From positions 5,472,001-5,536,000 of the forward strand of contig CBDCJO010000002.1 in NCBI GenBank assembly GCA_965217865.1: 64,000 bases of DNA. Reading direction: 5' to 3'. Positions 57,530 through 61,218 of the stretch are shown here, piece after piece; within the stretch, counting starts at the first letter, position 1; each line of letters starts with the position of its first letter. The notes beneath the pieces are model-generated. The model was not told the origin of the DNA. It worked only from the letters and a program-made list of their open reading frames with translations, and made no database searches. This DNA comes from Candidatus Latescibacterota bacterium (GTDB lineage: Bacteria > Latescibacterota > UBA2968 > SICM01). The position numbers were made by a program, and so were the translations under genes.

Positions 57530-58198
57530 TTGAACACGGAAATCCATCCAAAAAGAGTATTAATCCTCGACGACCAGCCGGTGGTTCTCGAACAGCTCGA
57601 TCGCTGTCTTCGGAATCACAACTTCGAACCGATCCCGACCACCAGCTGGACCACAGCAATCGACCTGGTGACTCACAATACCCCCGATCTTGCCATCCTG
57701 GACTTACAGATGCCGACAATTCAGGGGAATTCGGTTTTAGACCTGATCCGGCAGGATGGACATTCCTTTCCCATTATTGTGATGTCTGCCTATCTAAACG
57801 AAGAGAAAATGGATGAACTCCGGCTCCTCGGTGCAAATGACTTTTTATCCAAACCTTTTCATCTTAACGACTTAGTGAACACGGTCCAGAGGCTTCTTGG
57901 ACAACCCCCCGTACCTGAATCCCCTCAAGAATCCGAGGAATCGGAAAGCTCTCCGAAAGAGGCCACAGCAATATTACCTGAAGAACTCGCCGATTCTGCA
58001 GTTCAAGAGACACAAGAAGACGACCCTCCCAAATATCCGAGGAAGCAGCGGATACACAAGCGGGAACTCCTGACTTATGCAAGAATAGCCTTGATCTGCC
58101 TGTTCGGGGCGTTCATCATCATCGTGATCAAAATGGGCTACACATCTGAAGACTTCGTCTCACAGGTGAAACAATTTCTTTTCGCAATTAGAATCTAA
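57530..58198 (+). CDS. Response regulator receiver + acidic linker + C-terminal TM; last codons supplied by the IS
   Basis: ILDD, DLQMP, KPF; hydrophobic segment near the C-terminus. Confidence 0.8.
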   Translation: MNTEIHPKRVLILDDQPVVLEQLDRCLRNHNFEPIPTTSWTTAIDLVTHNTPDLAILDLQMPTIQGNSVLDLIRQDGHSFPIIVMSAYLNEEKMDELRLLGANDFLSKPFHLNDLVNTVQRLLGQPPVPESPQESEESESSPKEATAILPEELADSAVQETQEDDPPKYPRKQRIHKRELLTYARIALICLFGAFIIIVIKMGYTSEDFVSQVKQFLFAIRI

Positions 58199-58279
58199 GG
58201 GCTTGACTTTTACCCTCTTTTCGGTTATATTAAGTGTAGTGAAAACAACCAACTTAACCAAAAAAGAGGAGGAAGGAAA

Positions 58280-59164
58280 ATGAACTTGTTGACGGCGATT
58301 GAAAGGTTCCCTACTCAGGAATCATGCATTGATCACCTTGAGCGGGTGAGATTCGGAGATGATCCGTTTTGTCCGCTCTGCGGTGTCGTTGGTGACGTTG
58401 CCCGCAAGAAGGACCGTAACCGCGTTGGACGCTGGAACTGTCATGCCTGCGGGTCCAGCTTCAATGTTCTTTCAGGGACAATATTTCAGAAAACGTACCT
58501 GCCGCTTCAGAAGTGGTTTATGGCAATCGCCTTGATCGTGAACGCCAAGAAGAGCCTGTCCAGTTGTCAGCTTGCCCGGGACCTGAACCTTACCCAGCGG
58601 TCGGCATGGTATATGCAACAGCGGATTCGTGCCGAGATGGCGACAAGGAATGGTAGAGTGCTCTTGCGAGGAATCATCGAGGCAGATGAGACCTACGTAG
58701 GAGGCAAGCCACGGAAGCGTAACAAGCGGTCAGGAGGCGGCGGCAACGCTCCCAGGGGGCGCGGAACCCGCAAGACTCCGGTTATAGGGGCAGTGGAGCG
58801 TGGCGGGAAGGTGGTTGCCCGTGTGGCGGACGATCTATCTGGCAAGGGAGTTCTGGCCTTCGTCAAGCAGGCGATAGACCCCGAAGGGTCGATGCTTGTC
58901 ACGGATGAATACAGTGCTTATAATACCGTAAGGCAAATCATGAGTCACGCTGTGATCCACCATGCCAGGCATTATGCGGACGGTGACATACACACGAATA
59001 CGATTGAAGGCGTGTGGTCTCTGCTCAAGCGTGCCTGGTACGGTTCCCATCATCACTACACGAAGCGTTACACGCCGTTCTATGTGGCTGAGGCGTGTTA
59101 CAAATACAACAACCGGAAGAACAAGCGGACGTTTGACACGTTCATGAAGGGGTGCTTCGCGTAG
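58280..59164 (+). CDS. IS1595-family (ISXO2-like) transposase
   Basis: CPLCG/CHACG Zn ribbon, EADETYVGG, TDEY, HTNTIEGVWSLLKR. Confidence 0.93.
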   Translation: MNLLTAIERFPTQESCIDHLERVRFGDDPFCPLCGVVGDVARKKDRNRVGRWNCHACGSSFNVLSGTIFQKTYLPLQKWFMAIALIVNAKKSLSSCQLARDLNLTQRSAWYMQQRIRAEMATRNGRVLLRGIIEADETYVGGKPRKRNKRSGGGGNAPRGRGTRKTPVIGAVERGGKVVARVADDLSGKGVLAFVKQAIDPEGSMLVTDEYSAYNTVRQIMSHAVIHHARHYADGDIHTNTIEGVWSLLKRAWYGSHHHYTKRYTPFYVAEACYKYNNRKNKRTFDTFMKGCFA

Positions 59165-59165
59165 A

Positions 59166-59696
59166 GTGTTTCTTAATATGGAGGTCGCAGAAATGAAGCC
59201 AATGACTCAACTTATTAATAGAATTGAAGAGAAAGACAAACTGTTCTTCAGCTTGTCGGACACACTTGACGTCAAAGCAAGCGTTTCGTTGATTCTGATC
59301 ACGTTTCTGTCCACACAAACCGCTTATTTTCTTAACCTTGACACTGCACACGTAGTTGTATCATCTGCCCAAACTCTCTCTGCAATAGCCCTTAGTGTGG
59401 GCGGAATTCTGGCACTGATTATTCTCTGGCCACGTTGCCATGAGACCGAAAGCATAGAGAAATGGGATCCCTGGTATCAAGAACTAAAAAAGTATTTTGA
59501 GGGCAAACCGGAAGCCGATCAAAAAGCTGATGAACTGTTTGAACGTGAAAGGTTCAATGGTCTGAAGAAACAAATAAAACACAACCGCTCCATCGTTGGC
59601 CAGAAGGCATGTCTTGCCACGTGGTGCTATGGATGCATAGCACTCTCTGTTTTATTAAATCTCGCGTGCCTTCTCTTACACAACACACTTCGCTAA
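59166..59696 (+). CDS. 3-TM membrane protein, Pycsar-effector (DUF5706)-like architecture
   Basis: LDVKAS-TM-TM-WPR-soluble loop-N..I...K-TM. Confidence 0.6.
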   Translation: MFLNMEVAEMKPMTQLINRIEEKDKLFFSLSDTLDVKASVSLILITFLSTQTAYFLNLDTAHVVVSSAQTLSAIALSVGGILALIILWPRCHETESIEKWDPWYQELKKYFEGKPEADQKADELFERERFNGLKKQIKHNRSIVGQKACLATWCYGCIALSVLLNLACLLLHNTLR

Positions 59697-59800
59697 CCGC
59701 CTTTAGTGACTCGTTCTGGCTGGGGCGGAGGAGGCGGTGGTGGCGGTGGTGGCGGTGGTGGCGGTGTCTGTTTTTGGTCGTTGTTTTTTTCGTCTGCCAT
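59693..59800 (-). CDS. 35-aa poly-proline peptide (not in the ORF track)
   Basis: AAAGGAG 7 nt before ATG; MADEKNNDQKQT-P14-QPERVTKGG. Confidence 0.65.
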   Translation of the reverse strand: MADEKNNDQKQTPPPPPPPPPPPPPPQPERVTKGG

Positions 59801-59818
59801 TTGAATTCTCCTTTCGAT

Positions 59819-61042
59819 TTACAGGATACCATCCGCCTTCAATTTGGAGATCAGATGTTCCTGTGTGTTGGATCCCTTGACGCTGTTGCAGGCTCCGCAT
59901 AGCAGTTGCAGGTTGTCCAGATGATCGGTTCCTCCTTTGCTCTTGGGCGTGACATGATCCACCACGAAGTTTCTGAAGTGAAATGTTGAACGGCACCCTT
60001 TGCACATTCCTTCCTGCTTGCCGAACAGGACATGCCTATGTGTACGGTAGTTGGGAAGCTTGCCTACGTCCGTTCGTTTTGGAACGTCGGTTCGCTTGAC
60101 GGGCGTGAAGTCGCTGAACAGGTCGAGTTGCCGGATGCGGACCTGAACAAGATCAACCGCTTTCTCCGATATGTCTATACCCACCCATTGGCGGTGCAGC
60201 TTTTCGGCAGCAACGCAGGCGGTGGCGCAGCCCGCGAATGGGTCCAGGACAATATCTCCCTCCTGGCTCGACGCTTTAACGATTCGCTCCAAGAGGGCAA
60301 GGGGTTTCTGGGTAGGATAGCCGACACGTTCGCGTTGATTGGTCAGCTTTGGAATACCGACCCACCAGTCTTCCGGCACCTTGCCAACCCCAAGCATGGT
60401 TTCAACGTCGGCCCTGCTCCGCTTTTCGTTCGTGAACCAGCTGTCATCTGCGCGTCCTTTCCGGGCGAGCGTTTCAGGATGATACGGTACGCGCACGGCA
60501 TCACGGTAAAACGACGCAGTCGTTTTGCGGCAGTACCACAAAACCGTGTCATGCTTGCGTGGAAACCATCGAGGTGTATTGCTCGCACCTGTATAGCACC
60601 ATACAATTTCGTTCCTGAAATTGGATTTTCCGAACACAGCATCCATGAGCAGCTTCAGGTAATGGCTGGCCGTGGGGTCGCAATGCAGGTACAGACTTCC
60701 GGTTGTCTTGAGCAACCGCTTCATTTCGAGCAGCCTTACGGCTATCATGATCAAATACGATTTCATGCCTTTCCCGTGCGCCAAGCCTGATGCGTCAATG
60801 ATCGAATATAGGGCCGGTTGCTTGTCTGCGATCTCTCCGTGCCATGCTTCGTCCACGTCCGAAAGCGTCCACGTGTCTTTGAATGCAGCCCCGGCCGCCT
60901 CGCTCCCCACGGGTGCGGCATAGTTCCGCTTGCTATTGAAAGGAGGATCGAGGTAGATCAGGTCTACGCTCCCGGAGTTCATACCACGCATGATGTCCAG
61001 GTTGTCACCCGTCCACATCGTGCGGTTCTTAAAGTTGGGCAT
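59819..61042 (-). CDS. N6/N4 DNA methyltransferase (beta class) fused to an HNH endonuclease
   Basis: DPPF, YPTQKP, DPFAGCAT; C-terminal CKGC...DHVTPKSKGG...NLQLLCGACN..K. Confidence 0.9.
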   Translation of the reverse strand: MPNFKNRTMWTGDNLDIMRGMNSGSVDLIYLDPPFNSKRNYAAPVGSEAAGAAFKDTWTLSDVDEAWHGEIADKQPALYSIIDASGLAHGKGMKSYLIMIAVRLLEMKRLLKTTGSLYLHCDPTASHYLKLLMDAVFGKSNFRNEIVWCYTGASNTPRWFPRKHDTVLWYCRKTTASFYRDAVRVPYHPETLARKGRADDSWFTNEKRSRADVETMLGVGKVPEDWWVGIPKLTNQRERVGYPTQKPLALLERIVKASSQEGDIVLDPFAGCATACVAAEKLHRQWVGIDISEKAVDLVQVRIRQLDLFSDFTPVKRTDVPKRTDVGKLPNYRTHRHVLFGKQEGMCKGCRSTFHFRNFVVDHVTPKSKGGTDHLDNLQLLCGACNSVKGSNTQEHLISKLKADGIL

Positions 61043-61218
61043 GGCGTGAATTTACTCATTCCGGCTTGGAAAGTCAAGCCCATGAGGTCTAATTGCGTTT
61101 CTTTTTAAGGGGGCTTTTAATCGGTAACCTTTGATGTGTACCGGGTGAAAAAAAACCGGCACTCCCCGATCGGTATCGTGGTGCCTGGTAATCAAATGAT
61201 TTGAAAGTCTCTTCCGAT

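Follow-up and report, generated by a model that had tools for sequence, protein, structure and literature searches.

Does a proline-rich reading frame of 35 codons, ending inside the stop codon of an oppositely oriented membrane-protein gene, encode a functional partner of that protein, and if so, of what kind? The locus that raises this question lies in a window of 64,000 nucleotides (the whole stretch of DNA analysed) from a Candidatus Latescibacterota bacterium. A preliminary description had reported a Pro-rich ORF with a strong ribosome-binding site (RBS), 18 nt after the stop of an MTase-HNH gene and stop-to-stop with a convergent gene for a protein with three transmembrane (TM) segments. 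These observations were verified: the four letters CTAA (59693-59696) are common to the stops of the peptide and the TM gene, the MTase-HNH stop (59819) leaves a gap of 18 nt on the side of AAGGAG and the peptide, and the spacing from AAGGAG to the peptide ATG is 7 nt. The peptide consists of 12 polar residues, 14 prolines (P14) and QPERVTKGG. The TM gene had been read from the GTG at 59166, but its start is most likely the ATG at 59193, which follows GGAGG (59180-59184) and gives a protein of 167 aa, the length of database protein P0001 and the 80%-identical P0002. The Pro codons of P14 are indeed mixed, with a 9-nt period (CCG CCA CCA three times); however, such codons alone do not demonstrate the coding selection that they had been said to fit, because P14 is a slippage expansion; it is the homologues that do so. 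DNA-run contigs of the source genome end at this Pro repeat.

It had been overlooked that transposase, TM gene, peptide and MTase-HNH sit together inside an IS1595 transposon of 2,915 bp (58183-61097; Table 1), in which the last three are cargo. Its ISXO2-like DDE transposase, zinc ribbon, terminal inverted repeats (TIRs), 8-bp duplication and mobility are those of the IS1595 family. A second identical copy of 2,915 bp with its own target duplication, TTTAATTT, is present in the genome, and a single contig from DNA run X3 shows the unoccupied target (joint 58174>61098, 8 shared letters). The element contains 6 promoter-like sites against 2.1 expected, with one inward site per TIR, and a sequence scan detected no terminator between the stops of the TM gene and the peptide.

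Table 1 Features of the IS1595 transposon and of the gene pair that it carries (window coordinates)
Feature	Position	Strand	Remark
Left 8-bp target-site duplication TTTCTTTT	58175..58182	.	repeated at 61098-61105
Left terminal inverted repeat, IS1595-family	58183..58210	+	28 nt, 82% complementary to 61070-61097
Inward sigma70-like promoter TTGACT-17-TATATT	58203..58231	+	consensus match only; predicted for transposase and TM gene
IS1595/ISXO2-like DDE transposase with zinc ribbon, 294 aa	58280..59164	+	PF12762 E 1.2e-36, PF12760 E 3.9e-8
Three-TM membrane protein distantly homologous to PycTM, 167 aa	59193..59696	+	RBS GGAGG at 59180-59184
Pro-rich micropeptide gene, 35 aa	59693..59800	-	stop shares 4 nt with TM-gene stop
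C-terminal motif ERVTKGG	59696..59716	-	family form [VFIL][KR][KR][GS]; Thr replaces first Lys
P14 tract, 9-nt repeat expansion	59723..59764	-	tract length varies among relatives
Shine-Dalgarno AAGGAG of peptide gene	59808..59813	-	RBS and start nearly the same in L007 and sibling L001
N6/N4 DNA methyltransferase-HNH fusion (MTase-HNH), 407 aa	59819..61042	-	separate cargo, outside the pair
Inward sigma70-like promoter TTGACT-17-TAAATT	61049..61077	-	consensus match only; predicted for MTase-HNH and peptide
Right terminal inverted repeat	61070..61097	-	repeat search
Right 8-bp target-site duplication	61098..61105	.	copy of left duplication

Ten more copies with about 90% transposase identity enclose other cargo within the same boundaries, and the siblings have a pair of exchangeable cargo slots in convergent orientation, each of which is read inward from its own TIR. 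Since sibling transposons swap the cassette for other cargo, it does not fix the element permanently. The peptide of sibling L001 shares its RBS and N-terminus with the one described here but differs at the C-terminus, and it faces a different TM gene interrupted by an IS. The closest relative outside the genome (L007, also Candidatus Latescibacterota; 80% TM identity) keeps TM gene, peptide and RBS, but differs in having another transposase, no MTase-HNH, an (AP)n stalk replacing P14 and the end KKGFG. We therefore regard the TM gene and the peptide as the unit. The MTase-HNH was rejected as a part of the module, being absent beside the 80%-identical pair of L007 and adjoining other small cargo in siblings. 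An IS1595 transposase is present in 13 of the 99 related loci described below.

Whether the peptide is a gene was judged from its homologues. We fetched 99 related loci, whose named genomes belong to Acidobacteriota in 17 of 18 cases, and set aside 20 in which the TM gene was broken, cut or followed by less than 150 nt, leaving 79 eligible. A convergent ORF of 20-90 aa with at least 20% Pro and a stop between -35 and +20 nt from the TM stop occurs in 62 of these 79, against 4 of the 370 other ORFs of the same loci; a search for short Pro-rich ORFs beside TM homologues, which the preliminary description had called for, thus came out in its favour. The pairing persists after clustering by TM identity (51/65 clusters at 90%, 18/22 at 50%). 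The stop offsets of this dominant layout are -17, -4 and -20, and an RBS-like word precedes 49 of the 62 peptide ORFs.

Coding evolution points in the same direction. Among 15 disjoint peptide pairs, single-base codon changes were 176 synonymous and 51 non-synonymous. Because protein alignment favours a synonymous excess, the test was repeated at the DNA level outside the gene overlap, where mismatches by codon position were 106/570, 91/561 and 227/559, against a flat upstream control (176/505, 206/491 and 192/495); besides this third-position bias, 1,701 of 1,811 aligned bases are in frame. The peptides are rich in Pro, Arg and Gln and are without signal sequence. Their conserved end, Pro-Pro followed after two to six residues by [VFIL][KR][KR][GS], was found in 46 of 55 distinct peptides independently of gene overlap (28/32, 9/12 and 9/11, the last without overlap), and 29/55 possess a second internal motif of the R[DE][SN] type. 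The window's own peptide misses the family pattern at one position, with Thr at the first basic site. The end-classes follow the TM clades (14 changes vs 46 when shuffled), which we interpret as co-inheritance rather than co-evolution, because kin share labels. Together, these data make us nearly certain that the pair is real and functional.

They also change which parts of the peptide seem to matter. P14 had been taken as its key feature, with dependence of its translation on EF-P as a consequence. A longest Pro run of seven or more is found in merely 3 of 55 distinct peptides (PPP in 47/55), and one clade has motif-like peptides with no poly-Pro; long Pro runs are not conserved, and EF-P would be secondary at most. 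Searches with the peptide itself yielded little: a query against the Atlas gave no usable match, and the reverse search with its motif returned 0 in viral contigs and 1 in 401 genomes, against 6 control matches. RBS-led Pro-rich short ORFs number 139 candidates genome-wide, mainly noise, of which this peptide (two copies) and the sibling peptide (two copies) are convincing.

The TM protein had been compared with Pycsar membrane effectors, and this comparison holds, albeit as a distant one. The window's protein matches the PADLOC model of PycTM (E 2.9e-5), PDLC02364 matches 47 of 106 members of its family, and its nearest Atlas clusters are PycTM (0.95). PF18967 matches 8/106 members at E<=0.01; the window's protein falls under the Pfam cut-off, and P0001 is not matched by PF18967 in Pfam. 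Moreover, it shares with the Pycsar/Pucsar TM effectors (PycTM, PF18967; pJV1-spdB3 3TM family) a size of ~170 aa and three TM helices, the first preceded by DxK and the third by N..K, in addition to the weak HMM and language-model matches. The sequence evidence thus argues for a distant PycTM homologue. There are 135 relatives at the 50% level. The AF2 model from a 106-sequence alignment is all-helical (pLDDT 94.9), and three hydropathy peaks with an N-in charge pattern run through the family. Judged from the charges, the N-terminal helix and residues 80-139 are cytoplasmic, and the conserved polar residues D15, D23, D26, K28, WPRxY, R127, N131, N135 and K138 lie on this predicted side; the window's protein departs from the family at Q127 and V135. 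Searches of solved structures (Foldseek, VIA-align) gave generic helical bundles, with no PycTM or PucTM chain among the matches listed, and NCBIfam left the window's proteins unmatched. Nothing was found by tblastn of P0001 and the L108 protein against plasmids and phages, or of the L138 protein against phages, and viral scans with TM2 (a sibling TM family) and tandem-type queries gave no confirmed match.

What separates the pair from Pycsar is the partner of the effector. The missing cyclase had already been pointed out, and none was found near the TM gene in the window or in related loci: a three-sequence profile, run over the window and 415,746 bp from the 99 loci (28 of which reach 6 kb), detected no PycC-like ORF, and Pfam detected none among 87 scanned neighbours (153 listed). 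Conversely, a convergent peptide occurs in 0 of 10 canonical PycTM loci, three of which have a confirmed adjacent PycC; these were selected from 13 loci of two family searches after dropping L130 and L131 (weak) and L129 (frame untraceable). A PycTM-type effector, although a distant one, is therefore combined here with a Pro-rich micropeptide instead of an adjacent PycC. As the defining cyclase is absent, the pair is not a Pycsar system; it likely works like a toxin-antidote or guard module.

Several variant arrangements show what is retained when the layout changes. We read the 17 rule-negative loci by eye, without control, and found a related peptide or an HU-fused motif in 16 of them. Two have the same peptide with less than 20% Pro, and in four the convergent peptides are different but end in a similar way. 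A clade of six loci (L012, L013, L065, L067, L069 and L078) possesses arrays of two or three RBS-led, Lys-rich convergent peptides of 20-30 aa, and it is here that poly-Pro is absent. In L042 the peptide is inverted onto the TM strand, and L104 is cut upstream. In L081, L086 and L102 a convergent peptide is absent and the upstream HU gene (identified by PF00216 in two of the three) ends in PPP[PD]RII[KR]KI; the HU-family proteins with this C-terminal extension of 12-13 residues, which bears the peptide motif, are encoded directly upstream of the TM gene (L081:3025-3336, L086:2957-3313, and L102). In a homologous TM subfamily (hhalign 97.8%), the peptide follows the TM gene in 7/7 loci, either on the TM strand or in frame with that gene, and possesses an RBS and a start of its own. 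Because the peptide is thus free in orientation (inverted, tandem, in-frame or as an HU tail), it is the peptide and not an antisense RNA that seems to be kept.

The same-strand or in-frame layout is also seen on Photobacterium and Vibrio plasmid records. One Photobacterium locus (L153:2854-3745) has a TM gene with a Pro-rich tail and an internal start, plus a separate Pro-rich peptide gene behind it; these genes are missing from the plasmid gene table. The AF2 model of a natural in-frame TM-peptide fusion (L107) shows no docking of the tail (pLDDT 47-56, with nil alignment depth over it), and the tail would be placed on the far side of the membrane. Outside the source genome, the sibling TM2 family, which gives no significant profile match to the present TM family, is represented by 8 distinct loci: six with RBS-led hydrophilic peptides in convergent orientation, and two (L148 and L151) in which the TM gene is intact and no peptide was found. 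Finally, the TM gene is broken with the peptide intact in L001, L024, L076, L119, L136 and L139, and broken with the peptide undetected in five loci (L070/71, L087 and L092/93). Assembly errors, or the larger target that a TM gene offers, may account for the broken TM genes.

The preliminary description had proposed a toxin-antidote or sensor pair, and the conserved pairing of TM gene and peptide fits this idea. In the form that we consider, whose chances we rate as about even, the locus would act without a cyclase as a toxin-antidote or guard module, a labile peptide keeping a predicted PycTM-type pore shut. The TM protein is presumed to oligomerise as hexameric PucTM does. The basic motif of the peptide would bind the conserved acidic cytoplasmic face (D15, D23, D26, K28, R127, N131 and K138), while the Pro-rich part would act as a variable stalk of a disordered peptide. 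If short-lived, a peptide translated from such a strong RBS would have to be replenished constantly; loss of the element, or shut-off of translation by a phage, would then free the pore and stop growth, with addiction and/or abortive infection as the outcome. The six loci with an intact peptide and a broken TM gene fit this antidote model, since they are what one would expect were the TM protein the harmful partner. As in type II toxin-antitoxin systems, the adjacent genes are conserved as a unit on mobile DNA. Weighing against the model are the distance of the PycTM homology, the one off-motif residue of the window's peptide, the two TM2 loci in which no peptide was found, the five loci with a broken TM gene and no detected peptide, and the exchange of the cassette in sibling transposons. 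The neighbours are mixed, some defence-like and many housekeeping (no control).

Published systems give the model some background. The accessible text of PMC11224242 describes canonical PycTM as ligand-activated, and the activated protein as disrupting the inner membrane, while PucTM, according to 10.64898/2026.08.12.744502, forms hexamers with a channel of 15 A and has an unresolved ligand site. According to the available sections of PMC13712596, a constitutive ligand can hold such effectors shut in Panoptes, and Panoptes (OptS/OptE) and Hailong share the logic proposed here, in which a membrane effector is released once its repressive ligand disappears. In those systems, however, repression relies on ssDNA or on a nucleotide produced by an enzyme, and acts on an effector of another family, whereas here a ribosomal peptide would be the repressor.

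Two other readings likewise assign the peptide a direct role at the TM protein. The latter could be a dedicated exporter or receptor through which the unfolded chain threads a narrow channel with the motif as its tag, serving in signalling or antagonism. This suits Pro/Arg/Gln-rich peptides without signal sequence and the reported PucTM channel width of 15 A, and Makarova et al. (2022, PMC8939145) proposed a role in peptide transport for the cluster 18 membrane proteins of thuringinin graspetide loci. These loci indeed resemble ours in that a small uncharacterised membrane protein of cluster 18 travels with a peptide gene, but here an ATP-grasp or other modifying enzyme is absent from the element and from the 87 nearest neighbours of 42 loci, in which no recurring ABC cassette or protease was found either. 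Since the motif on HU tails is hard to reconcile with export, and six loci retain an intact peptide beside a broken TM gene (so that the peptides do not seem to be toxic without the TM protein), we consider an exporter or receptor unlikely. Alternatively, the peptide may be an activator that replaces cCMP/cUMP as the opening ligand and is released or processed on infection. Canonical PycTM is ligand-activated (PMC11224242, accessible text), the peptide is present where the cyclase is missing, and the internal R[DE][SN]-type motif is a possible processing site. However, the strong RBS (49/62) and the TIR consensus promoter suggest steady expression, and a constant activator would be lethal; with no recurring regulator or protease among the 87 neighbours as well, we hold this reading to be quite improbable.

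The remaining explanations place the function elsewhere than in binding to the TM protein. As the preliminary description suggested, the convergent transcript might silence the TM mRNA as antisense, with the ORF holding ribosomes or sensing EF-P or tRNA-Pro. Convergent type I toxin-antitoxin loci, such as txpA/RatA and bsrG/SR4 of Bacillus, encode toxins that are short single-TM peptides and have RNA as the antitoxin. Our locus shares with them a membrane-protein gene on mobile DNA whose 3' end overlaps that of a convergent partner, and the dominance of the stop-overlapping layout (62/79), the inward promoters in both TIRs, the lack of a detected terminator between the stops and the frequent PPP (47/55) agree with such control. 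Yet our membrane protein has 167 aa, and selection on its partner acts at the peptide level whatever the orientation. The inverted, tandem, in-frame and HU-fused forms, the conservation of the motif as protein where genes do not overlap (9/11) and an RNA structure that is not unusual (z -0.11) all disfavour antisense as the core mechanism, and the orientation variants and coding selection do not indicate a cis-antisense RNA antitoxin. We find such control very unlikely as the main mechanism, but an antisense transcript may add a second layer. The terminal GG, earlier proposed as a handle for conjugation like that of ubiquitin or Pup, ends the window's peptide and 10/62 in total, whereas 52/62 end otherwise (GA 16, SA 6, SS 5, AG 5, SV 4 and others) and the closest homologue ends GFG. 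With no invariant GG(E/Q), no linked ligase and no ubiquitin-like, ThiF, E1, E2 or JAB family among 87 neighbours, conjugation is largely refuted and has a vanishingly small chance of being right. It is hardly credible that the ORF is a microsatellite that arose by chance on the antisense strand, although the 9-nt repeat expansion of P14 could be cited for this: the pairing of 62/79 vs 4/370 and the third-position bias, with 1,701/1,811 bases in frame, argue against a pure microsatellite.

A pairing of a PycTM-like gene with a Pro-rich micropeptide is undescribed in the full-text literature that we searched, which comprised few subscription papers and no supplements, and is not described in the available parts of PMC13069673 and 10.64898/2025.12.20.695498. 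PycTM-type effectors appear in the literature searched as receptors for enzyme-made nucleotides only. If true, a gene-encoded peptide partner would therefore provide a second route of control for this pore family and a natural probe of its unlocated ligand site, and would explain many 'orphan' PycTM-like genes, whose partner was overlooked because it has 24-70 codons, is of low complexity and is often antisense. The pair takes up ~600 bp. As a speculation that we ourselves doubt, the loci may belong to a large hidden class of immune or addiction modules in which a ribosomal micropeptide has replaced the cyclic-nucleotide signal, with the motif gating the pore, proline-heavy coding acting as a fast fuse for failure of translation and the HU-grafted motif serving as a guarded decoy; such a class would span at least Acidobacteriota, Latescibacterota and Vibrionaceae. 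Should the antidote model fail and the pairing hold, there would still be an unannotated micropeptide family under purifying selection.

Passenger-carrying elements of the IS1595 family are known as "transporter IS". The present transposon shares with these the ISXO2-like transposase, the TIRs, the 8-bp duplication and the passenger genes, and differs in that its siblings have two convergent exchangeable cargo slots. The source genome is unusually rich in IS, with more than 50 IS1595-related transposase matches of several subfamilies. Several IS1595 elements of the genome carry further versions of the MTase-HNH as variable cargo, at 50-73% identity and with a swappable middle region. In three sibling elements (G000:C2, transposase starts 1568322, 3963364 and 5273972; L002) the MTase-HNH gene is reduced to a 3' stub, and a small four-cysteine ORF of 56 aa follows the same RBS stem in all three copies. 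In the L001 element (G000:C2:3670300-3674950) the TM gene is split by a nested IS with a 466-aa transposase, and the MTase-HNH is in two ORFs. A second copy of this type has its left and right halves about 225 kb apart (C2 near 3359026 and 3583453), which suggests an IS-mediated rearrangement. Finally, an RBS-led ORF of 22 codons recurs about 14 times in the genome (e.g. C1:582511-582579) and is probably the end of another multi-copy IS.
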